A stretch of 64,000 nt of DNA from a phage, in sequence record PZ386969.1; one strand, written 5' to 3'. Positions 2,435-59,212 of this stretch are shown one piece after another. A model generated the notes under the pieces. The model did not search any database and was not told where the DNA came from. It saw only the letters and a list, made by a program, of their open reading frames with translations. Position numbers and translations under genes: made by a program. Every line of letters starts with the position of its first letter. The stretch's first letter is position 1.

Positions 2435-3285
2435 TTTACACGTCCTGTATTTTCAGTTTTGAAAGGAAGCCCGTCGGCGGTGATGTTCTCCCACCAGACA
2501 GTGTCGGCATACACAGCATCATAGATCCCGTCGAAAACAGAGAGACCTTTGCTGAAGATGCCATGGGTAACGAAGAGCGTCATGTGCTTAGGCTTGTGCT
2601 TCTGAAGCTCTTTGCCTAACTCAACGAAAGTGCGCCCGCCGTCGCAGATATCATCAACCACAACCAGATAGCGGTCTTTGATCAGTTCAGGGTTCGTAAT
2701 ACTCACCCCAATGATCTCACCAGTCTTGGTGTCACGGTTCTTGTGACCGTAGACAACAGGAACACCGTCCAACGACAGGCTGAGGGCTTCGGTCTTCTTA
2801 GCCGCGCCGCCGTCAGGGGCTACCAACACAGCGTTGTTCCCACGGATGAACCAGCCCAGATACTGACGCACGATGTAATCTTGCGGGACAACATGGACGT
2901 TGTTGATCAGAGAAGACACAACATGGCTGTGAGGATCTTTGATCGCCACGCGGTCAAAGTTCATGCTATTGATGAACTCAGCCGCCCACTTCACAGACAG
3001 AGGCTCACCGAAGTCACAATGGCGGTCCTGGCGAGCATACGGGAAGTAAGGGATATACGCATGGAATGTCGTCAGACGGTCCACGTTACCCAGACCACGA
3101 ACGGCATTAACCAGAAGCGCCAGCTCAATGAAGTCGGCTGATGATTTGATGTGAGCATCAATCACCACGTTCTGAACGTGGCCGATAGGGATACCAGACT
3201 TTTGAATCTTGATATGTTCCTCACCACCTGGGAAGGTGAAGTGTTTGTAGAACACATCTTGGTCGTTCAATTTCAAACGAAACAT
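2431..3285 (-). CDS. ribose-phosphate pyrophosphokinase family protein (Prs-like; candidate ADP-ribose pyrophosphokinase Adps)
   Basis: 284 aa; FPYARQDR signature and VVVDDICDGG phosphoribosyl-binding loop; GAGG RBS. Confidence 0.7.
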   Translation of the reverse strand: MFRLKLNDQDVFYKHFTFPGGEEHIKIQKSGIPIGHVQNVVIDAHIKSSADFIELALLVNAVRGLGNVDRLTTFHAYIPYFPYARQDRHCDFGEPLSVKWAAEFINSMNFDRVAIKDPHSHVVSSLINNVHVVPQDYIVRQYLGWFIRGNNAVLVAPDGGAAKKTEALSLSLDGVPVVYGHKNRDTKTGEIIGVSITNPELIKDRYLVVVDDICDGGRTFVELGKELQKHKPKHMTLFVTHGIFSKGLSVFDGIYDAVYADTVWWENITADGLPFKTENTGRVK

Positions 3286-3393
3286 AATGCAGCCTCATGG
3301 TGTATTGTACAACCGTATTATACTGTGATGCACAAATTGAAACGTCCAGCATTTACGCTGGACGTTATTGATATTGAAAAGGTTTTGACAAAC

Positions 3394-3627
3394 TCAGGAT
3401 TTGGAGGAAGCGCCCTTCCATGTCTGACGTTTGTAGTGGGAAGCCATGGCCATCGACCCGGCGTATTGCGTTTCACCCCTGACTACCACAGCCACAACCA
3501 GCTTATGTCGCAACAGGAAGTCTAGACCTGACTTAGACGGGATATCGCCAATGCTCAGTGGACCACGATTGTACAGGGCATACATGGTGTCAAGCGCCGC
3601 CCCGGTAAAGATAATCTCTTTAGACAT
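3394..3627 (-). CDS. hypothetical protein
   Basis: ORF 3394..3732 in track; start moved to internal ATG (MSKEIIF) to remove a 98-nt overlap with the upstream gene. Confidence 0.3.
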   Translation of the reverse strand: MSKEIIFTGAALDTMYALYNRGPLSIGDIPSKSGLDFLLRHKLVVAVVVRGETQYAGSMAMASHYKRQTWKGASSKS

Positions 3628-6931: not shown

Positions 6932-8155
6932 TTATTCAGGTTTCTTCAAACGGTCCAGCAAATTGACGGAACCACGTTTGAGCACGACTTCATCACAACG
7001 TTGCTTATACGCACTACCATTCCCGTCATACCCCACCTTTCCTCGAGGTTTCTCCCCGCGCATCACTGCCTCAACACAGCGGGTATATTTCTGAAGTTCA
7101 CAGAACATGTTCTCCAGCTGCATAACATTCATGCAACGATCTTCCGGTTCTTCTGCCGACCAAAATTCATTACGTTTATACCCATACTGAGCGAACAATT
7201 GATCTTGATGATCACGAACCCAGAATATGCATTCTTCATGCGTCATGCCGTCCTTGTCCAAAAATAACAGATCGATACCAGCACGGCAACCTGGACCAGC
7301 GATAGTGAAGTGGTTTTCACTGAATGGATATTCATCGATGTATGTAAAATCAACCCAAATCTGGTATGCCAAGAATGGTCCAAGCCCCTCAATGTCGTCA
7401 TACATCGCCTGGTAAACAGAGTCGGGACGGCTAAATTCCCTGAGGCGATCAAAGTAATGAGGGTGTTTGTTGACGAATGCCTTCAGGGAGCGGATGACAC
7501 GCATTGGCATGTACGGTTCCCAACCTTCGATGGTGTAGAAGTCCGGCTCTGCTTCAGCGATGGCCTTGGCTTCCTTGTAATCCATGTTCTGGGTTGAACC
7601 GTCTTTACAGATCAGATTCACCATCATCCCACCGAAGCGCTGCTCCTTGTGGTTGACAACTAGTTCGGGGAAAGCCAGGCATTGTTTCAGACCGCCTGTA
7701 TTAAACGCATTGGTGAAAACTTTGCCACCTTTAGATTCGAATTCCTGAAGAACACTTCGACACCATTCAAGATTTATGTTTCCGAATTCTTCGATCGTCC
7801 ATGGACCACCCAAAGCCTGTATAGGTTCCCACATGTTGTACATGCGGAACAATACACAGTTGAACATTTTGTCAGATAGCGTGAGATCCTGATTGAGGAT
7901 GATATTATTGATCAAATTTCGAGACTGTCTATCGTGCTCTCTCCGCACGTTACAAAACTTGACTTGGCGTAATACCGGATTATCCGTCCATGGCGCTGGA
8001 AGGCATTGCACGTCCTTCTTGACATGTATCGCATAACGATCCCTCATCCATTCATATGCCAGCTGACGGTGGAATGAACTTAACATAGGATGGGCTGATT
8101 TGATTTTGGTTTCACGGACACCGCAATATGGGATGTCATATGGTTTATCTTTCAT
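6932..8155 (-). CDS. hypothetical protein (407 aa)
   Basis: ATG start with AGAGGA RBS; flanked by terminator hairpins 6848-6868 and 8179-8199; function not recognised. Confidence 0.6.
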   Translation of the reverse strand: MKDKPYDIPYCGVRETKIKSAHPMLSSFHRQLAYEWMRDRYAIHVKKDVQCLPAPWTDNPVLRQVKFCNVRREHDRQSRNLINNIILNQDLTLSDKMFNCVLFRMYNMWEPIQALGGPWTIEEFGNINLEWCRSVLQEFESKGGKVFTNAFNTGGLKQCLAFPELVVNHKEQRFGGMMVNLICKDGSTQNMDYKEAKAIAEAEPDFYTIEGWEPYMPMRVIRSLKAFVNKHPHYFDRLREFSRPDSVYQAMYDDIEGLGPFLAYQIWVDFTYIDEYPFSENHFTIAGPGCRAGIDLLFLDKDGMTHEECIFWVRDHQDQLFAQYGYKRNEFWSAEEPEDRCMNVMQLENMFCELQKYTRCVEAVMRGEKPRGKVGYDGNGSAYKQRCDEVVLKRGSVNLLDRLKKPE

Positions 8156-8223: not shown

Positions 8224-9096
8224 TTAATCGATACGGGTCAGTTGGGTGATAGATGATTGCACTGGGCTGGCCACATAGATACGGACGTTGGCTTTCCATT
8301 CACCCCAGATCAACGGTAGAGTTGGGAAGTTGTCTTCATTGAAAACAAACACGGGAATGTAGCTCTCGACTGTTTCGCCAGAGAACGCCTGGAAGCCCAT
8401 CTTGGTGTATCCCATGATCTCGTCAATAAAATCGAACGGAGCGAAGGCAACACCAGCGTGTTCGTTAGAGCCGAGCTGGCCTGGAATGGCCGTACCCGTC
8501 AGAATGATTTCAGTGATCTGGCGCTTAGGCTCGGCAGTCAGCATATCAGAGAAGTCAGGCTCTTTGAAGGTTGCCATGTTCTTCAGGAACTTGCCAGCCG
8601 GGTATTCTTTGCCGTCGACGGTGATGGTGTCTACCACTTTGATGCACGCCTGAGGGAATTCCCCTTCGATGCGCAGACTTTCGCGTGGGAAGCCTTTGTT
8701 GTAGTAGTAATCCAGTGCAGGCACAACTTCACCTTCATTGCGAATGAACTTGCTCATGTTAGACGCATACACGCGCTGTAGGCATTCGTCGCCGTCGAAA
8801 CCAGCAATATGAGCCAAACCGTCGTTGACTGTTGTGATGTCGCCCTGGGCATCCATGATCTGGCGCATGATGCCTTTGATGTCCACAACGGCAGGTTCTT
8901 TCAGGACTCGTGGAGTTGCAGTGAATTCCACCTTCACATCATGGTCAAAGAACACCGCTTCCAGCAGTTCGCGGGTCTCTTCCAGCACCAGTTTCGCCTG
9001 ATTGCGGATCTTACCAAAGTCAGGCGATGTGACGTCGCCCTTTGCATTACCGAAAGCCAGATTCAGATTCACGTTCTTAGAAAATGTAGTTGTCAT
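8224..9096 (-). CDS. hypothetical protein; N-terminal segment weakly resembles MazG/HisE-type pyrophosphohydrolase helices
   Basis: 290 aa; LVLEETRELLEAV segment; GGAG RBS; weak call. Confidence 0.45.
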   Translation of the reverse strand: MTTTFSKNVNLNLAFGNAKGDVTSPDFGKIRNQAKLVLEETRELLEAVFFDHDVKVEFTATPRVLKEPAVVDIKGIMRQIMDAQGDITTVNDGLAHIAGFDGDECLQRVYASNMSKFIRNEGEVVPALDYYYNKGFPRESLRIEGEFPQACIKVVDTITVDGKEYPAGKFLKNMATFKEPDFSDMLTAEPKRQITEIILTGTAIPGQLGSNEHAGVAFAPFDFIDEIMGYTKMGFQAFSGETVESYIPVFVFNEDNFPTLPLIWGEWKANVRIYVASPVQSSITQLTRID

Positions 9097-9112
9097 GATT
9101 TAGCGACTCCAG

Positions 9113-9577
9113 TTATTCGCTCTTGGCCTTCGTAGGCCGGATAATGTATTTTGGGACCAGCTTCCATTCAGGAACCTGATCGTGTTTAACCACTTTAATG
9201 CGTGACATATCGGCGGCTTCGGTGACCTGCTCGGGATGAATGACCTTCACCATGTTCCACTGCTCCAGCAGCTTGATGATGCGGTTCATCCTCAGGACAT
9301 CTTCGCGGTTAAATCCGTTGTAATGCCCGTCCAGCATGAATAGATGCTTAAAGTGGACGATATAATACTTACCACACTTATGAAGAATATGGCAAGTCTG
9401 ATACAGAGTATTCGGCTCTTGGCGCGTGTTTACCCCAATCCGGCTCAGTGTTTCCTTGATCCCCAGGAATATTCCTGGCCGATCTTGGTTCAATTGAACT
9501 TCAACCATACAATCAACGATGCTGGCCTCATCGTTGACGGCTGAAATGTTCAATATGTCTAGCGTATTGCGCGCCAT
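9113..9577 (-). CDS. regA: translational repressor RegA
   Basis: LYQTCHILHKCGKYYIVHFKHL and EWKLVPKY match T4 RegA (LYQSCHILQKKGLYYIVHFKEM, EWKLVPKY); AAGGAG RBS; about 25-aa N-terminal extension relative to T4. Confidence 0.8.
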   Translation of the reverse strand: MARNTLDILNISAVNDEASIVDCMVEVQLNQDRPGIFLGIKETLSRIGVNTRQEPNTLYQTCHILHKCGKYYIVHFKHLFMLDGHYNGFNREDVLRMNRIIKLLEQWNMVKVIHPEQVTEAADMSRIKVVKHDQVPEWKLVPKYIIRPTKAKSE

Positions 9578-9606
9578 GACTCATTCTCCTTTCACAATAG
9601 TTTGAA

Positions 9607-10029
9607 CTACTTAGCCTTGCGCGGTTTCGCTTTGGCGTTCAGCTCAGTGCGTCTCATCTTCTCGCGTATTTCGGCCAGGACTTCCTTCGGCAAGAAACGG
9701 ACGTACTCGGATGCCTTCTCCATGCTGATGTAGAAGTACTCGGAGAGTAACTTCACGTCAGGATCAATCGGACCTTTCTTAGACCATTTGTCGTAGCGTT
9801 TCCGCGCCGGAATGGTGTGAAAGGCATATGACCATTGCATCCATGGAGTAACAGCATGCAGTTTGTTCATCTGCTGAGCGGTCACTAGAGTGTCTTTGCT
9901 CTGAGCTAAACCACGCCGCGTCATAAACGGGTCGAATCCTTTCAACACTTCTGGGTCATCAGTCCGCAGAAGGTTTTCTTTGCTGCTGTTCAGAGCAGAC
10001 AGGTAATCGAACAATCCAAGGGCGGCCAT
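9607..10029 (-). CDS. gp62: clamp loader small subunit (gp62-like)
   Basis: TIPARKRYDKWSKK resembles T4 gp62 AVPRGKRYGKWAKL; position between gp44 and regA as in T4. Confidence 0.7.
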   Translation of the reverse strand: MAALGLFDYLSALNSSKENLLRTDDPEVLKGFDPFMTRRGLAQSKDTLVTAQQMNKLHAVTPWMQWSYAFHTIPARKRYDKWSKKGPIDPDVKLLSEYFYISMEKASEYVRFLPKEVLAEIREKMRRTELNAKAKPRKAK

Positions 10030-25871: not shown

Positions 25872-25917
25872 TTGAAATAAATGGGGGTTAAAATACTCCA
25901 AAGTGAGGATATTTATT

Positions 25918-27702
25918 ATGCCATTCCCCGATAAAAATTGTTTATGCTGCCACAAACCGTTCACCCCAACCAGGAAGGCTGCGTTGTATTGTAGTGACGA
26001 ATGTAAATCATTCATGCTGGGAACGATGAAACGTAATCCGGGTTTGTTGGATGACATCCCGACGACCGAAACCGAATGCCGCTCTTGGGTTGATAGTAAA
26101 CTCAGGAAGAAAGATGGTTCGTTGAACTACAAACTTATCTCTCATCCCCTACTCACGGCCCATACTGGGGTTGATGTTGTTGGATACGTGGTGTCACACA
26201 ACGACCTATTAGAAGAACCACAAGCGATAACTGCTTGGCTGTACGATATTCCGAAGTCGCAGTGTGCCACTTGCGGTGCTGACGTCGGCTTAGAAATGGA
26301 AGTCCAACCACCTAGATACAAAAAGTTTTGTTCCGAAGAATGCCAACGAGAATCAATGAAGGTGGGAGGCTCAGAACGGGCCAACCTAGAAAACGCCATA
26401 ACAGAGAAATATGGCGTAGCCAACATATTCCAACTGGAAGAAGTAAAACAAAAGTCACGGGAAACTGCCCTTAAGAAATATGGGGTCGACCACCCTATGA
26501 AGTCTGATGTTATAAAGGACAGAGTGGCTGCTTCCGTCATGGAACGCTATGGCGTATCACACGTCATGAAAATGCCAGAAGTGAGGGAAAGGGTGATTGA
26601 GACTTGGAGGAAGATCTATGGTGTGGATCATCCAATGTTCCTCAATTCCATTATAGAAAAGAGAAAGAAAACATGCGTCTTAAAATATGGGGTTGATTAT
26701 CCGTTGAAGGTAAAGGCTATATGGGATAGAAGCCAGGCCAATATCAGGATCATTTCAAAAGAAAAATACGGCGTACCTCACTATTTCTCTTCTGAAGAAT
26801 ATAGGAACTCTTTCACATACCCCAGCAGTCAAAGCCAAACACAGCCAGAAATAGAAATATGTTCATACCTGGATTCATTGGGCGTCGTTTATGAATCTGG
26901 TAATTTCTCCGTCCTCAGAGGTAAAATGTTCGACGGGAGGGCGACCACACGCCAGATAGACATATACTGCCCAGAACATAAGTTGGCAATAGAATTTAAT
27001 GGGTTGTATTGGCATTCGGAGAAACATCGATACAAAGACTACCATCTTGAAAAGACCATGCACTGTGAATCACAGGGTATTCAATTAATCCATATCTGGG
27101 AAGATGAGTGGCGTGACAAACAGGAAGTGGTTAAATCACTCCTTAAAGCAAAATTGGGGATAGGGAAACCATTGTCATACGCTCGCCAACATACCATTTT
27201 GGAAGGCTCCTATAGGACGTCCAAGGACTTTCTCGACCGATTCCATATACAAGGCGGTGTGGTGGCGACAGATTATATACACCTTGTAGACAAAACTGGG
27301 AATATCCAGGCGGTGATGTTGTTTACCAAACGAGTGCATGGTATTGAATTGGTGAGATTTGCTTCTAACAATTGCCATGGCGCATTCTCACGCTTGCTGA
27401 AATATTATATCGCTCGACATCGGGGTGAGACAGTATATTCTTTTGGTGATCGTTGTGTTGTCAGTCGTCTGAAAAATGTTTACCTGAATAACGGATTTGT
27501 TGAAAAGGAAATCCTTCCCCCTGATTACAAATATGTGACACCAGACTATAGCTTACGTATACACAAATTCAATTTCAGGAAAGAGAAATTCCTTAAACTT
27601 GGATATGATATAGAAGGTAAAACAGAGGATATGCTGTCGGTAGAAGCTGGGTTGGGGCGTATCTGGGGGTGTGGTCTCATCCGGTATGAACTGGAAAACT
27701 AA
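25918..27702 (+). CDS. free-standing nuclease, probable homing endonuclease (zinc ribbon + five KYGV repeats + PD-(D/E)xK Vsr/DUF559-like domain)
   Basis: Plus-strand ORF between minus-strand sheath and tube genes; RQIDIYCPEHKLAIEFNGLYWHSE...IWEDEW nuclease motif; start moved from GTG 25903 to ATG with GTGAGGA RBS. Confidence 0.7.
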   Translation: MPFPDKNCLCCHKPFTPTRKAALYCSDECKSFMLGTMKRNPGLLDDIPTTETECRSWVDSKLRKKDGSLNYKLISHPLLTAHTGVDVVGYVVSHNDLLEEPQAITAWLYDIPKSQCATCGADVGLEMEVQPPRYKKFCSEECQRESMKVGGSERANLENAITEKYGVANIFQLEEVKQKSRETALKKYGVDHPMKSDVIKDRVAASVMERYGVSHVMKMPEVRERVIETWRKIYGVDHPMFLNSIIEKRKKTCVLKYGVDYPLKVKAIWDRSQANIRIISKEKYGVPHYFSSEEYRNSFTYPSSQSQTQPEIEICSYLDSLGVVYESGNFSVLRGKMFDGRATTRQIDIYCPEHKLAIEFNGLYWHSEKHRYKDYHLEKTMHCESQGIQLIHIWEDEWRDKQEVVKSLLKAKLGIGKPLSYARQHTILEGSYRTSKDFLDRFHIQGGVVATDYIHLVDKTGNIQAVMLFTKRVHGIELVRFASNNCHGAFSRLLKYYIARHRGETVYSFGDRCVVSRLKNVYLNNGFVEKEILPPDYKYVTPDYSLRIHKFNFRKEKFLKLGYDIEGKTEDMLSVEAGLGRIWGCGLIRYELEN

Positions 27703-55444: not shown

Positions 55445-55521
55445 GGTCCTGTAGCTCAGTCGGTTAGAGCAGTGAACTCATAATTCATTGGTCATTGGTT
55501 CAAACCCAATCAGGATCACCA
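55445..55521 (+). tRNA. tRNA-Met (CAU)
   Basis: Manual cloverleaf: acceptor GGTCCTG/CAGGATC, D-arm GCTC-AGTCGGTTA-GAGC, anticodon loop CTCATAA, T-arm ATTGG-TTCAAAC-CCAAT, encoded CCA. Confidence 0.8.
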
Positions 55522-55655
55522 TATTGAGGGGCGATAGTTTAATGGATAGCTGTCCGGACAGTGAATCCTCATAGAGAACGGCTGGGCGGCCAAACCCAGC
55601 AGGTGAGGTGAAAAGCCTCAGACCCCGCCAATACAGTTTGTTGTAAAATAAATGT

Positions 55656-55683
55656 TTGTTCAATAAACTTTATATGGTATAGT
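55656..55683 (+). promoter_or_regulatory. sigma70-like promoter TTGTTC-N16-TATAGT upstream of tRNA-Asn
   Basis: -10 ends 9 nt before tRNA 5' end. Confidence 0.4.
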
Positions 55684-55692
55684 GATTTGCAA

Positions 55693-55768
55693 GACGATGT
55701 AGTTCAGTCGGTAGAACGGCGGTCTGTTAAACCGTATGTCGCAGGTTCAAGTCCTGCCATCGTCGCCA
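55693..55768 (+). tRNA. tRNA-Asn (GUU)
   Basis: Acceptor GACGATG/CATCGTC, anticodon loop CTGTTAA, T-arm GCAGG-TTCAAGT-CCTGC, encoded CCA. Confidence 0.8.
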
Positions 55769-56025
55769 GACAATGGGTGTGAACGAAAGTGAATAGGCAT
55801 AAAGTACGCGACCGACAAGCTCCAAGCCTCTGTCCAATAGCCGAACGGAATCCGAAGACGACGATAGTAGCGCCCACCAAATTCAGAGTGTAGAGGCTAC
55901 AGTAGTGCGCACCTCACGGGTTGCTACACCGGACACTCTGATACAAATCTACCGCCGCGTGGATTAGCTGAGGAAGGATGGCCGATGTCCTCGAGCGTGG
56001 CCCAGCACGCAGCGGCAGACCAAAT

Positions 56026-56109
56026 GTGAGTGTGGCAGAGCGGTCGAATGCAGGAGACTGTAAATCTCCCCGTAACAGCGCGGTGGTTCGAATCCATCCA
56101 CTCACACCA
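56026..56109 (+). tRNA. tRNA-Tyr (GUA), long variable arm
   Basis: Acceptor GTGAGTG/CACTCAC, anticodon loop CTGTAAA, T-arm GGTGG-TTCGAAT-CCATC, encoded CCA. Confidence 0.75.
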
Positions 56110-56329
56110 AACACAGTAAGCGTTGCAGCCAGCTGTGTATAAAATGGGGTGACTCCACATCGGAAACGATGCCCCAACTTCCAGAAATGGTCGGGCGCAA
56201 AGTCTGTAAAGTTCCAGGAGATCGAACCAGAAGGCACTGGTCGCCAGTTAACCAATCGGCGCTGAGAAGCGCGGGGAGTTGGGCTACGGCAGATCAAATG
56301 CTCAATCGGGTGTGAAGCCCGTCCAAATT

Positions 56330-56418
56330 GGAAGGTTGCCCGAGAGGTTTAAGGGACTCGACTGCTAATCGAGTGGGGCTTTTAGCCCCCGAAGGTTCGA
56401 ATCCTTCACCTTCCGCCA
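56330..56418 (+). tRNA. tRNA-Ser (GCU), long variable arm
   Basis: Acceptor GGAAGGT/ACCTTCC, anticodon loop CTGCTAA, variable-arm hairpin GGGGC/GCCCC, T-arm GAAGG-TTCGAAT-CCTTC, encoded CCA. Confidence 0.8.
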
Positions 56419-57444: not shown

Positions 57445-57513
57445 TCCGAGATTCTCCTTTTCTATATTCCTGTAGATACGCTATGATAAGCCAATGTCTA
57501 CAGGAGAAATAGA

Positions 57514-58707
57514 ATGAACAAGACCATCTTCGATACCCTTTCCCTCGACCGCAACCTGGTCCATTGGGAAGATTATCTCTACAAGCACACCCCGTGCGAA
57601 CTTGTCGTCAACCCCGAAACCAACCAGCAGGTCTGGTTCAAGCGTGAAGATTATTTTGCGCCGCTGTCTAACTATGCCAACGCCAAGCAGGGCATCAATG
57701 GCAGCAAACTCCGCCAGGCCATCTGGTTGATGGTTGAGCACCTCAAGGCCGGAGGCTCCCCTGACATCATCCATGGTACTGTCGTTGGTAGTCCGCAGTC
57801 CCCTATGGCGACAGCAGTCTCTCGGCACTTCGGCGGCAAGACAACCACTGTACTCGGAGCGACCAAACCCACCACCTGTATGAACCACGACATGGTGGCA
57901 ATGTCAGCCTGGTTTGGTAGTGAGTTCAACTTCGTCGGCTCGGGTTACAACAGCACGATCCAGCCGCGCTGTAAGAAGTTGATCGAACAACAGAATCCAA
58001 AGGCGTATTATCTGGAGTATGGTATCACCCTCGACCATACAACCCACTCCCCTGAGCGCATTGCTGGGTTCCATATGCTGGGTGGCGAGCAGGTTGCCAA
58101 CATCCCTGACCATATTACCGATCTGATTATCCCTGCTGGATCCTGCAACTCGTGCACAAGCATCCTGACCGGGCTGGCAATGCATCCGAAGCCTAATCTG
58201 AAGCGTGTGTATCTGATCGGCATCGGTCCGAACCGCCTGGACTTCATTGAGAGCCGTCTGCGCATCATCGGCAAACATGCCAATCTACCGCACATTGTCG
58301 ACTTCACCCGTCGCTATCACGACAACCCAGACTATGTACACGGCAAGAAGGAGCTTCAGCATGCCTCTAAGAGCGTTTCGCTGGCTGGCCTCCTGAGTGG
58401 TATCAGGCAGAAGGAAGAGCCAGAGGTCGTGCTTCCTCGCTTTGAGGTACACCATTGGGATCTTCATACCACTAATTGGGTTCGTTATAATGACCTGATG
58501 GAATATCAGTGGGGTGATATTGAGTTGCATCCTCGCTATGAAGGCAAGGTCATGACCTGGGTTCAGCAACACAAGCCCGAGTTGCTCAATGAGAACACTC
58601 TGTTCTGGATTGTGGGTAGCAAGCCGTACATTGAGCCAATGAAGGCTGCATGCCCTGAACTGGCTATCCCTGAAACAGTTCCTGTAAACGACTTCACCCC
58701 TTCCTGA
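57514..58707 (+). CDS. PLP-dependent enzyme, fold type II (ACC deaminase / D-cysteine desulfhydrase family)
   Basis: TPCELV...FKREDY...NGSKLRQ (PLP-lysine region) and IIPAGSCNSCTSILTGL Gly-rich loop align with E. coli DcyD motifs KRDD, GGNKLRK, VVASGSAGTHAGL. Confidence 0.7.
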   Translation: MNKTIFDTLSLDRNLVHWEDYLYKHTPCELVVNPETNQQVWFKREDYFAPLSNYANAKQGINGSKLRQAIWLMVEHLKAGGSPDIIHGTVVGSPQSPMATAVSRHFGGKTTTVLGATKPTTCMNHDMVAMSAWFGSEFNFVGSGYNSTIQPRCKKLIEQQNPKAYYLEYGITLDHTTHSPERIAGFHMLGGEQVANIPDHITDLIIPAGSCNSCTSILTGLAMHPKPNLKRVYLIGIGPNRLDFIESRLRIIGKHANLPHIVDFTRRYHDNPDYVHGKKELQHASKSVSLAGLLSGIRQKEEPEVVLPRFEVHHWDLHTTNWVRYNDLMEYQWGDIELHPRYEGKVMTWVQQHKPELLNENTLFWIVGSKPYIEPMKAACPELAIPETVPVNDFTPS

Positions 58708-58713
58708 TCCATC

Positions 58714-58747
58714 CTAAATACCCCATACAAACCAGTGTGGGGTATTT
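58714..58747 (+). promoter_or_regulatory. late promoter CTAAATACCCCAT as 5' arm of hairpin; 3' arm TGGGGTATTT abuts ATG 58748
   Basis: Inverted repeat AAATACCCCA / TGGGGTATTT with 11-nt loop. Confidence 0.55.
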
Positions 58748-59212
58748 ATGAAAACCTTTCTTGAATATCTTAAAGAGGCGTCTGAGGCTGAACCCAAGTT
58801 CGATAACATGCGCCTCTTTCACGGCTCCAACGTAGAATTCGATGTCTTCGACTTTGAGCGCTTCGGTCAGACCGACTGTGGTACGATGGGACCTGGGTTC
58901 TATCTGACAGGCAACGAAGAAGAGGCACAGCGCTATGCAGAGAATGCCGTCCGCTACCGCCAGAGTGGTGAACCCCATGTTCTGGTGTTTAACGTCAGTG
59001 TTAAGAAGCCCCTCGAACTTGACTCTAACAATGTCTCGGCCTGGGAAGACGCTATGCGTGAACTTGGTATCGAACCGGGTAAGATCCATGAGAACGCCGC
59101 CGAGCTAATTGCTCAGGGCTATGACTCCACCATCGTGCTGGACCGCTTTGGGTTGCCTATGGTACGTGAGATCGTCCTGTACAAACCAGGCCTGGCAGTG
59201 CGGGAAGCCTAA
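58748..59212 (+). CDS. PARP-like (H-Y-E class) ADP-ribosyltransferase domain protein (154 aa)
   Basis: LFHGSNVEF ... GPGFYLTGNEEEAQRYA ... REIVLY parallels the PARP catalytic signature LWHGS ... GKGIYFADMVSKSANY ... NEYIVY; late-promoter hairpin immediately upstream. Confidence 0.5.
   Translation: MKTFLEYLKEASEAEPKFDNMRLFHGSNVEFDVFDFERFGQTDCGTMGPGFYLTGNEEEAQRYAENAVRYRQSGEPHVLVFNVSVKKPLELDSNNVSAWEDAMRELGIEPGKIHENAAELIAQGYDSTIVLDRFGLPMVREIVLYKPGLAVREA

Follow-up and report, generated by a model that had tools for sequence, protein, structure and literature searches.

The window analysed here, the whole 64-kb stretch of DNA, belongs to an Agtrevirus-like member of the Ackermannviridae (ViI-like phages). 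It is collinear with the genome of Escherichia phage AV101 and 92 to 99% identical to it, three gaps aside (19.7 to 20.7 kb, 25.8 to 27.7 kb, and the tailspike region at ∼40.5 to 49.6 kb). ViI, AV101, and the window have a common gene order of tRNA cluster, orf224 homologue, PLP gene, three to four small ORFs, and polA; the DNA polymerase gene lies ∼2.6 kb downstream of the PLP gene stop. The following features frame the locus:

57514 to 58707, plus strand: coding sequence (397 aa plus stop, ATG start) of a predicted PLP-dependent DNA O-serinylthymidine decarboxylase, the orthologue of ViI gp226 (Vi01_182).
57460 to 57514, plus strand: leader hairpin in the MFE fold, with a 6-bp stem (57460-65/57509-14) and a 12-bp stem (57467-78/57495-506).
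57482 to 57487, plus strand: TATGAT, a hexamer resembling a −10 element, within the loop of the hairpin (T, A .. A, T invariant in alignment A2).
58715 to 58748, plus strand: perfect 14-bp hairpin between the PLP gene stop and the next gene (dG −21.9 kcal/mol, z = −5.15).
6932 to 8155, minus strand: orthologue of ViI gp160, an aGPT-Pplase clade 1 paralogue (tblastn, 79% over 407 aa; Pfam PF18723, 280 bits).

An AGGAG at 57502 to 57506 stands seven nucleotides upstream of the PLP gene ATG. The start at 57480 given in an earlier, sequence-only reading falls in the leader, the ORF itself beginning at 57514. By BLASTP, the protein is identical to ViI gp226 (= Vi01_182 = YP_004327553) at 362 of 394 residues (92%), ungapped, with an E value of 0, and it matches PHROG 3650 over its whole length (E = 6e-239). 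The Pfam PALP family (PF00291) aligned with residues 26 to 249 (E = 3.4e-7) at 30.3 bits, below the gathering cut-off of 35, and among the homologues some have precomputed Pfam hits and others do not. NCBIfam gave no family match to the 397-aa protein at E ≤ 1, and no equivalog. Given a Pfam score under the cut-off and no NCBIfam model, the curated sequence libraries leave the protein unnamed. A single-sequence phmmer search of PDB sequences returned nothing at E ≤ 1, so a family profile was needed. Database and GenBank labels of the homologues include “threonine ammonia lyase,” “threonine dehydratase,” and “hypothetical protein,” and the AV101 copy is a truncated call. On sequence and position, the gene is a full-length and syntenic orthologue of ViI gp226; since this 92%-identical counterpart has already been characterised, the gene is real but already explained. 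Nor is such an enzyme unusual in a phage replication/late region, as had been supposed: it is conserved throughout the Ackermannviridae and was described previously.

A profile search of PDB sequences returned only ACC deaminases and DcyD, which bears out the initial assignment to the fold-type II PLP enzymes of the ACC deaminase/D-cysteine desulfhydrase lineage. The AlphaFold model (pLDDT 90.5) has a two-domain fold of the tryptophan-synthase-beta-like kind, in which the lysine is N-terminal and the phosphate loop Gly-rich, and the nearest solved folds in Foldseek, DcyD and ACC deaminase, agree with fold-type II; the closest neighbours in structure and in profile thus belong to the same family. 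The motifs TPCELV (T26-V31), FKREDY (F42-Y47), NGSKLRQ (K65), and IIPAGSCNSCTSILTGL (I205-L221) are all present as first read. Their proposed alignment with E. coli DcyD also stood when run directly: the motifs pair, although BLASTP against the K-12 protein is weak (21% identity over 217 aa, E = 0.032). The BLASTP pairs are FKRED/IKRDD, NGSKLRQ/GGNKLRK, and IIPAGSCNS/VVASGSAGT, with HPRYEGK/DPVYTGK in a separate weak segment (E = 0.62); hhalign of the family profile against DcyD (probability 87%, E = 4e-6) paired TPCE/TPLE as well. Within the coding sequence, these comparisons mark five elements:

57706 to 57708, plus strand: K65, the predicted PLP Schiff-base lysine (= ViI gp226 K92, M6 gp52 K36, ACC deaminase K51), invariant in the alignments.
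57790 to 57798, plus strand: invariant loop S93-P94-Q95, set against the S78-N79-Q80 substrate loop of ACC deaminase in the HMM alignment to 1rqx.
58126 to 58161, plus strand: I205-S216 (IIPAGSCNSCTS), a Gly/Ser-rich loop, the expected binding site of the PLP phosphate, aligned with VVASGSAGTHAG of DcyD.
58261 to 58518, plus strand: family-specific insertion, about residues 250 to 335, absent from both ACC deaminase and DcyD.
58528 to 58548, plus strand: H339-K345 (HPRYEGK), the counterpart of DPVYEGK (ACC deaminase) and DPVYTGK (DcyD), aligned to 1rqx, 1f2d, and DcyD.

The catalytic lysine, whose loss would have spoken against the assignment, is retained: K65 is the equivalent of ViI K92, aligns with the GGNK lysine of ACC deaminase in the profile search and with M6 gp52 K36, and is invariant in 52 homologues with identities down to 42%. 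Together with S93, Y342, and E343 it forms a set of invariant counterparts of ACC deaminase K51, S78, Y294, and E295, Y342/E343 corresponding to Y294/E295. The numbering and catalytic roles of K51, S78, Y294, and E295/T we take to be those of the ACC deaminase literature. H339, P340, and K345 are also invariant, and position 343 is Glu, as in ACC deaminase, and not the Thr of DcyD. In the I205-S216 loop, G209 and N212 are invariant and P207, S210, S213, and S216 nearly so. Only ∼270 of the 397 residues superpose on 1j0a or 4d97, which leaves over the insertion of ∼85 residues. It combines a loop of low confidence in the pLDDT profile (residues 279 to 288) with a conserved aromatic-rich block (HWDLHTTNWVRYNDL...), and its D316, L317, H318, and Y325 are conserved. 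The insertion may have a role in DNA or nucleobase recognition; for it, for E343, and for S93-P94-Q95, we infer functional roles from these comparisons.

The biochemistry of the family comes from ViI. Purified gp226 is yellow and absorbs at 410 to 425 nm (Lee et al. 2021, PMC8989533); acting on O-serinyl-thymidine in DNA as a decarboxylase, it gives 5-NeOmdU, the 301-u nucleoside, with the loss of exactly one labelled carbon, and K92 was proposed as its Schiff-base lysine (PMC8989533). When gp226 was left out of the lysate mix, a +44 u intermediate stayed (PMC8989533; Lee et al. 2018, PMC5889632). We conclude that the gene product is very probably the PLP-dependent decarboxylase of the Ackermannviridae, the enzyme that completes the making of 5-NeOmdU (5-(2-aminoethoxy)methyl-2'-deoxyuridine) on phage DNA as its final step. 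The function first suggested from the sequence, DNA base hypermodification as in ViI-like phages, was exactly right, as the 92%-identical syntenic orthologue attests; the host metabolite manipulation offered beside it was considered and dropped for want of supporting context. A substrate screen with D-Cys, ACC, Ser, and Thr, as then proposed, would probably miss the real substrate.

[quoted passage not shown] The PLP decarboxylase would then strip the serine carboxylate as CO2 to leave the aminoethoxy group, and the present phage presumably makes 5-NeOmdU in this way. In the proposed mechanism, PLP would be held by K65 as an internal aldimine until the free alpha-amine of the DNA-tethered serine displaced K65 by transaldimination; CO2 would depart, the carbanion being stabilised by the cofactor with its pyridine nitrogen probably facing the invariant E343, and C-alpha would be reprotonated before release of the product amine. 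The scaffold would be that of fold-type II (tryptophan-synthase-beta-like), closest to ACC deaminase/D-cysteine desulfhydrase, with the added insertion possibly contacting DNA. Because decarboxylases of fold-type II are atypical, the detailed mechanism has no solved structure behind it, and the PDB copies searched yielded no structure of any DNA amino-acid decarboxylase.

Genomic context points the same way. ViI gp160 is one of five ViI genes pooled in the lysate reconstitution of 5-NeOmdU, and its orthologue is the only other gene of that set within the window. In AV101, each of the six ViI pathway genes has an orthologue; its dUMP hydroxymethylase, 5-hmdU DNA kinase(s), and serine:DNA transferase (aGPT-Pplase2) are 75 to 90% identical to those of ViI. 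Its kinase and serine transferase genes lie 7.7 to 10.5 kb downstream of the PLP gene, which corresponds to just past the window's end. Since the kinase, serine transferase, and hydroxymethylase genes fall outside the 64 kb, completeness of the pathway rests on this close relative. In viral contigs from outside the Ackermannviridae, a homologue of the PLP gene lies within ∼1.5 kb of an aGPT-Pplase2 homologue in ∼47 of 55 cases, usually directly adjacent. According to reviews, the pathway genes are kept family-wide in the Ackermannviridae, and 5-NeOmdU was confirmed by LC-MS in one Taipeivirus (PMC11721090; bioRxiv 10.64898/2026.05.19.726188), in addition to the Kuttervirus measurements (ViI, CBA120). 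For Agtrevirus, our literature search found no 5-NeOmdU measurement or nucleoside analysis, and no experiment on any member's copy of the PLP protein.

Many GenBank records would instead make the protein a small-molecule enzyme acting on free host metabolites, namely a threonine/serine ammonia-lyase, an ACC deaminase, or a D-cysteine desulfhydrase. DcyD and ACC deaminase are indeed the nearest solved folds, the counterparts of K51, S78, Y294, and E295 are conserved, and labels in the databases, “threonine ammonia lyase” and “threonine dehydratase” among them, say as much. Those labels, however, are automatic transfers; identity to DcyD is just 21% (E = 0.032), no NCBIfam equivalog matches, and the metabolic enzymes are without the ∼85-aa insertion. 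The 92%-identical ViI protein, moreover, is a decarboxylase of DNA-borne serine (PMC8989533), and the homologues adjoin amino-acid:DNA transferase genes in most of the unrelated phage contigs, so that we give this explanation almost no credence. It is also improbable, if to a lesser degree, that family and pathway are the same and the Agtrevirus-like lineage uses another DNA-tethered amino acid or ends at a base other than 5-NeOmdU. Members of the family are combined with differing transferases, radical SAM enzymes, and FAD enzymes (PMC8989533), the N-terminus differs from that of ViI by a 27-aa deletion, and the literature offered no Agtrevirus nucleoside analysis to set against the idea. Yet identity to ViI gp226 is 92%, none of the family-invariant residues has been lost, and N-terminal length varies freely within one phage genus. 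The AV101 serine transferase is, in addition, 90% identical to ViI gp247, with no additional modification genes seen adjoining it. The serine decarboxylase of 5-NeOmdU synthesis stands as our preferred identification.

The 70-nt leader is the most conserved nucleotide stretch of the locus across the Kuttervirus, Agtrevirus, and Taipeivirus loci sampled: positions 57445 to 57513 are 93 to 100% identical in 19 related phages, compared to 78 to 94% for the coding sequence just downstream. Its hairpin, 18 bp in two stems, pairs the whole AGGAG (57502-06) and the A of the ATG, and contains the perfect 8-bp inverted repeat CCTGTAGA (57469-57476)/TCTACAGG (57497-57504). The folding energy of −25.5 kcal/mol (z = −5.0) was equalled by 0 of 200 shuffles; in raw terms it is in the top 3.9%, no higher, of all 70-nt windows in the 64-kb sequence. 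The sequence-only reading had reported an 8-bp hairpin at about 57461 to 57494; the hairpin is real, but the coordinates were ∼8 to 10 nt off and the stem is larger, at 6 + 12 bp. Its further remark that the 3' arm overlaps the AGGAG RBS holds, the 12-bp stem taking in the entire AGGAG. In the main lineage the leader is nearly invariant: one change, from C-G to U-G, is compatible with the stem, and another, the natural variant T57497C, breaks a pair and is uncompensated. Divergent lineages have different sequences with SD-occluding hairpins in different register, and in the phiMAM1-like and phiEa2809-like lineages the aligned hexamer is TACAAT. An Rfam search of the leader gave noise only (E values of 2.6 to 8.4, all far under the gathering scores). 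A consensus scan called no terminator-like site between the two genes. On Ackermannviridae transcription starts or promoters, the literature search yielded nothing usable.

The leader could be a dedicated expression switch for the decarboxylase gene, a possibility we regard as rather doubtful. In read-through transcripts from upstream, the 18-bp hairpin would bury the Shine-Dalgarno sequence and start codon, and a promoter with its −10 TATGAT in the loop would yield a translatable transcript without the 5' arm; decarboxylase synthesis would thereby be delayed until after replication and the transfer of serine, much as in the case of T4 gene e. A different account, to which we give somewhat under an even chance, is that conservation of 57445 to 57513 reflects a DNA-level promoter/operator (TATGAT plus the upstream TTCTCCTT) or a processing/termination signal of the upstream gene, the hairpin being incidental and no translational switch existing. 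The three divergent lineages share a TAyrAT hexamer and a CTCCTT block, their hairpin arms being out of register, and T57497C disrupts one stem pair with no compensating change. From an alignment of 10 leaders, RNAalifold retained no more than a 7-bp CUCCU:AGGAG helix and found no compensatory pairs, so structure-level selection was not demonstrated. Against this account, a consensus sigma-70 scan called no promoter in the leader, for lack of a good −35 (the one present is weak); the hairpin has no T-run after it and is thus not an intrinsic terminator. Nor does the motif recur elsewhere: GATTCTCCTTTTCTATA occurs once in the 64 kb at up to 3 mismatches, and none of the leader's 9- or 10-mers recurs there beyond chance. 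An SD-occluding hairpin, finally, is found in three of three lineages despite their sequence differences.

Right after codons 2-3 of the PLP gene, in-frame indels of 0 to 58 aa occur, and in one relative (L017) a 535-aa homing-endonuclease-like ORF has captured the PLP gene leader. A related reading of these sequences is that the site just after codons 2-3 may be a recurrent insertion point. That the N-terminal extensions are remnants of the L017 ORF was rejected, because they have no significant similarity to each other or to it. At the other end of the gene, the 3' arm of the 14-bp hairpin ends on the A of the next gene's ATG (58748). This hairpin is 82 to 92% conserved in the 16 Kuttervirus/Agtrevirus-type loci compared and was not found in L028, L029, or CRW-SP2 (32 to 35% matched).

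Enzymes of this class are among the few PLP enzymes known to act on a nucleobase inside polymeric DNA, and the resulting modification blocks many restriction enzymes. The class was established for ViI in 2018 to 2021 and the gene recognised as conserved in the Ackermannviridae, so the present copy adds just an Agtrevirus-like orthologue. Its practical use is to correct the labels “threonine ammonia lyase” and “hypothetical protein” and the truncated AV101 call. Given that the PDB copies searched lack a DNA amino-acid decarboxylase, the ACC-deaminase-like scaffold and motifs (Y-E-G-K with Glu) are a useful start for structural work.

Four known systems bear comparison with the locus. In T4 gene e (lysozyme), as McPheeters and colleagues are said to have described in 1986, a hairpin hides the RBS in read-through early transcripts, and late transcripts starting inside the hairpin are translated. 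Here, too, a stable hairpin would bury the SD and start codon, and a transcript begun at the −10-like hexamer in its loop would be without the 5' arm. The leader, however, has no covariation support, and the T4-type late promoter TATAAATA occurs nowhere in the 64-kb window; we treat the resemblance as a lead, not as demonstrated membership.

For the enzyme, the remote relative is gp52 of Pseudomonas phage M6 (YP_001294560), a PLP-dependent C-alpha-glycinylthymidine decarboxylase of the 5-NedU pathway. The two have in common the fold class, the reaction class (decarboxylation of a thymine-tethered amino acid in DNA), and the aligned lysines K36/K65 (PMC8989533). Similarity is low (hhalign probability 24%, E = 8e-4, 22% identity over 177 columns), and M6 gp52 has only 278 aa and a substrate that requires prior radical-SAM isomerisation. 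As the alignment stops at its residue 185, nothing in M6 gp52 aligns with the C-terminal insertion or the HPRYEGK region. ACC deaminase and D-cysteine desulfhydrase (PDB 1j0a, 1rqx, 1f2d, 4d8t/4d97, 7ysk; E. coli DcyD) are 12 to 18% identical, with aligned motifs FKRED, G-x-K-L-R, the S-x-Q loop, the Gly/Ser phosphate loop, and (D/H)P-x-Y-(E/T)-G-K. The present protein differs in its ∼85-aa insertion before YEGK and in having SPQ for SNQ/SNH in the substrate loop. These enzymes catalyse ring-opening deamination or beta-elimination of a free amino acid, whereas the ViI orthologue decarboxylates on polymeric DNA; since its substrate is DNA-bound serine (PMC8989533), the likeness is one of scaffold and not of functional membership. 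Relative to ViI gp226 itself, the present copy is Agtrevirus-like where ViI is a Kuttervirus, and it is missing a 27-residue segment that ViI has right after Met-Asn. The two are nevertheless 92% identical over 394 aligned residues, occupy the same genomic position behind an identical 5' leader, and, judging from the close relative AV101, have the same pathway partners.

All four motifs quoted in the sequence-only reading were found in the protein: TPCELV (residues 26 to 31), FKREDY (42 to 47), NGSKLRQ, whose lysine is K65 (codon 57706-57708), and IIPAGSCNSCTSILTGL (205 to 221). The gene that carries them is as follows.

57514-58707, + strand: PLP-enzyme ORF, 397 aa, ATG start, AGGAG 7 nt upstream

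Sequence libraries answered the identity of this enzyme only in part. Its single Pfam match was PALP (PF00291; E = 3.4e-7), which scored 30.3 bits where the gathering cut-off is 35, an NCBIfam search gave no match, and in PHROGs the entire protein fell into phrog_3650 (E = 6e-239), labeled "unknown function." Many public records mislabel the protein as "threonine ammonia lyase," "threonine dehydratase," or "hypothetical protein." In Escherichia phage AV101, the counterpart of window 57481-58707 lies at OQ973471 2267-3493 (loci L002/L005), where a truncated CDS (2591-3493) and a spurious antisense ORF (2267-2560) erroneously replace the full gene.

In phage ViI, the syntenic position is occupied by Vi01_182 (orf00226; YP_004327553), which is preceded by a tRNA cluster and orf224 and followed by a few small ORFs and then polA. 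The two proteins are identical at 362 of 394 positions (92%) without a gap, and Lee et al. (2021) entered this accession as "ViI gp226, PLP-dependent decarboxylase" (PMC8989533). In that study, purified gp226 was yellow and absorbed at 410-425 nm, converted O-serinylthymidine (O-SerT) in DNA to the 301-u nucleoside 5-NeOmdU, and took exactly one carbon off 13C3,15N-labeled O-SerT, while reconstitution without it gave a product of +44 u (PMC8989533). The 2018 paper had already counted gp226 among five ViI genes that together suffice to make 5-NeOmdU in lysates (PMC5889632). The earlier suggestion of ViI-type DNA hypermodification was therefore borne out in the form of a close syntenic counterpart, and by orthology we assign the enzyme to the gp226-type DNA amino-acid decarboxylases; the gene in itself is already known and nothing new. 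The proposed Schiff-base lysine of gp226 is K92, from a Phyre2 model on template 1j0a (PMC8989533). Because gp226 has 27 additional residues right after Met-Asn, K92 corresponds to K65 here.

The site of that difference is an indel hotspot. Right after Met-Asn(-Lys), at window 57514-57525 and at the equivalent point in related loci L006-L025, in-frame additions of 0, 13, 27, 44, or ~58 residues occur; these extensions are unrelated among themselves, with the leader and the core from K-T/S-I-F onward conserved. In one such locus, L017 (IMGVR_UViG_2595698455_000001, 8389-9996), a 535-aa homing-endonuclease-like ORF (DUF7487, with a weak Vsr-like REase_MTES_1575 match) is inserted directly after codon 3. 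The insert uses the PLP gene's conserved leader and ATG, and a new ATG that overlaps the end of the insert now starts the PLP gene itself. The window has a paralogue of the inserted ORF at 25903-27702(+), flanked by the genes for tail tube and tail sheath; the segment that holds it is missing from AV101.

A megablast search with the locus returned 267 phage records, all but two with enterobacterial host names, led by Enterobacter phage fGh-Ecl02 (96.9%) and AV101 (95.6%). Among these matches, the inspected records ViI, AV101, and CRW-SP2 belong to the Ackermannviridae, i.e., the ViI-like phages; AV101 is placed in the subfamily Aglimvirinae and termed an agtrevirus in PMC11721090. The window is collinear with AV101 at 92-99% identity outside three gaps (19.7-20.7 kb, 25.8-27.7 kb, and the tailspike region at ~40.5-49.6 kb, with just two short matching blocks). 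The comparison with ViI-like phages in the sequence-only reading was thus literally true, since these matches and this collinearity make the window itself a ViI-like phage. Four tRNA genes, Met(CAT), Asn(GTT), Tyr(GTA), and Ser(GCT), lie at 55445-56418(+), ~1.1 kb upstream of the PLP gene, and AV101 is annotated with the same four in the same order upstream of its own.

Only one other member of the five-gene reconstitution set is found in the window, which ends within polA.

6932-8155, - strand: gp160 orthologue, 79% identical to gp160; Pfam PF18723, 280 bits

AV101 has its orthologues of gp243 (5-hmdU DNA kinase) and gp247 (serine:DNA transferase) downstream of its PLP gene, at a distance of 7.7-10.5 kb that corresponds to just beyond the window's end, and it also carries orthologues of the kinase gp67 and of the dUMP hydroxymethylase (thyA-like). 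We surveyed 79 viral contigs with a PLP homologue, 55 of them outside the Ackermannviridae. In ~47 of these 55, an aGPT-Pplase2 homologue lay within ~1.5 kb, mostly adjoining, so the association with an amino-acid:DNA transferase holds family-wide. According to a review (PMC11721090), all Ackermannviridae conserve the modification genes, and in a Taipeivirus with the same gene set a 2026 preprint confirmed 5-NeOmdU by LC-MS (bioRxiv 10.64898/2026.05.19.726188). Adjoining the gp160 orthologue is the counterpart (8227-9096, - strand) of a ViI gene annotated "MazG-like pyrophosphatase"; it is 59% identical to the ViI gene and had no Pfam match at E <= 0.01.

The 8-bp leader hairpin of the sequence-only reading exists, as a perfect repeat at 57469-57476 and 57497-57504, but was under-described. 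In the minimum-energy fold, a 12-bp stem (57467-57478 with 57495-57506) stands upon a 6-bp stem (57460-57465 with 57509-57514), pairing the entire AGGAG plus the A of the ATG (dG -25.5 kcal/mol; z = -5.0). None of 200 shuffles folded equally well, and the raw energy was in the top 3.9% among 70-nt windows of the window sequence. The leader (57445-57513) keeps 93-100% identity in the 19 loci compared (Kuttervirus, Agtrevirus, Taipeivirus, and CRW-SP2), against 78-94% for the CDS just after it; the last part of the gene before it often cannot be aligned. The phiMAM1-like and phiEa2809-like phages have other leader sequences, yet these also form SD-occluding hairpins; Vibrio-type relatives had none in their leaders.

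These data are compatible with a translational switch like that of T4 gene e, with a promoter inside the hairpin. They would also fit a promoter or operator acting at the DNA level, the hairpin being incidental. The positions invariant across lineages are the CTCCTT block and a TAyrAT hexamer in the loop (TATGAT, 57482-57487); RNAalifold on the leaders retained only the CUCCU:AGGAG helix, with no compensatory pair. A consensus scan called no complete sigma-70 promoter in the leader, its motifs did not recur elsewhere in the 64 kb, and it had no Rfam match.

The T4 late-promoter octamer TATAAATA has zero occurrences on both strands of the 64-kb window, which holds mostly late structural genes, even though late transcription factors of the gp55 and gp33 kinds are encoded by its relatives ViI and AV101. 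After the PLP gene, the spacer at 58715-58748(+) forms a perfect 14-bp hairpin (dG -21.9 kcal/mol, z -5.15) that ends at the A of the next gene's ATG and buries GGGG, the would-be ribosome-binding site of that gene. With the leader hairpin, strong hairpins abutting start codons thus stand on both sides of the PLP gene. The 154-aa product of the next gene (58748-59212, + strand) carries an ART-PolyVal ADP-ribosyltransferase domain, scoring 41.6 bits in Pfam (PF18760; cut-off 31.2); records of related phages call it hypothetical only.

We aligned 52 homologues of the enzyme, down to 42% identity. Invariant residues include K43, R44, D46, N62, G63, K65, R67, S93, P94, Q95, H105, G209, N212, H339, P340, Y342, E343, and K345. 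The predicted Schiff-base lysine, whose loss on alignment had been named as a refuting result, is retained. The HMM search proposed earlier, run with this alignment against all PDB sequences, matched only ACC deaminases (1rqx, E = 1.5e-6; 1f2d, 1j0c/e, and 1j0a) and Salmonella D-cysteine desulfhydrase (4d8t, E = 1e-3). K65 pairs with the ACC-deaminase GGNK lysine, S93-P94-Q95 with S-N-Q, and HPtYEGK with DPVYEGK. The AlphaFold model was confident (pLDDT 90.5, pTM 0.89), with pLDDT below 50 only at residues 279-288, and DcyD and ACC deaminase structures took the top 31 Foldseek places. Approximately 270 of 397 residues superpose on 1j0a or 4d97; what remains is the N-terminal ~20 residues plus an insertion (~250-335) ahead of the YEGK motif.

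ViI gp226 binds PLP and removes CO2 from a serine of duplex DNA, ether-linked via its side chain to the thymine 5-methyl carbon, leaving an aminoethoxy side chain (PMC8989533). By extension, K65 would hold PLP as an internal aldimine, the free alpha-amine of the DNA-tethered serine would displace it by transaldimination, and CO2 departure would precede reprotonation of C-alpha. The invariant E343 may help to stabilize the carbanion; the ACC-deaminase residue aligned with it faces the pyridine nitrogen. In most fold-type II enzymes this position is Ser/Thr, and Glu would suit a decarboxylase more. More speculatively, the invariant SPQ, replacing the SNQ/SNH substrate-carboxylate loop, is a candidate for re-orienting the carboxylate, and the aromatic-rich block of the insertion, with D316, L317, H318, and Y325 conserved, might bind DNA or a flipped-out base.

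The motif-by-motif pairing with DcyD was right. Profile comparison supports it solidly (hhalign probability 87%, E = 4e-6), but pairwise similarity to E. coli K-12 DcyD is weak (21% identity, E = 0.032). Although scaffold and motifs are alike, the chemistry of the orthologue gp226 differs from that of ACC deaminase and DcyD; because of this, and because curated models miss the protein, it should not be filed under either name. M6 gp52, the other characterized DNA amino-acid decarboxylase, is only remotely similar (hhalign probability 24%, E = 8e-4), with its K36 aligned to K65.
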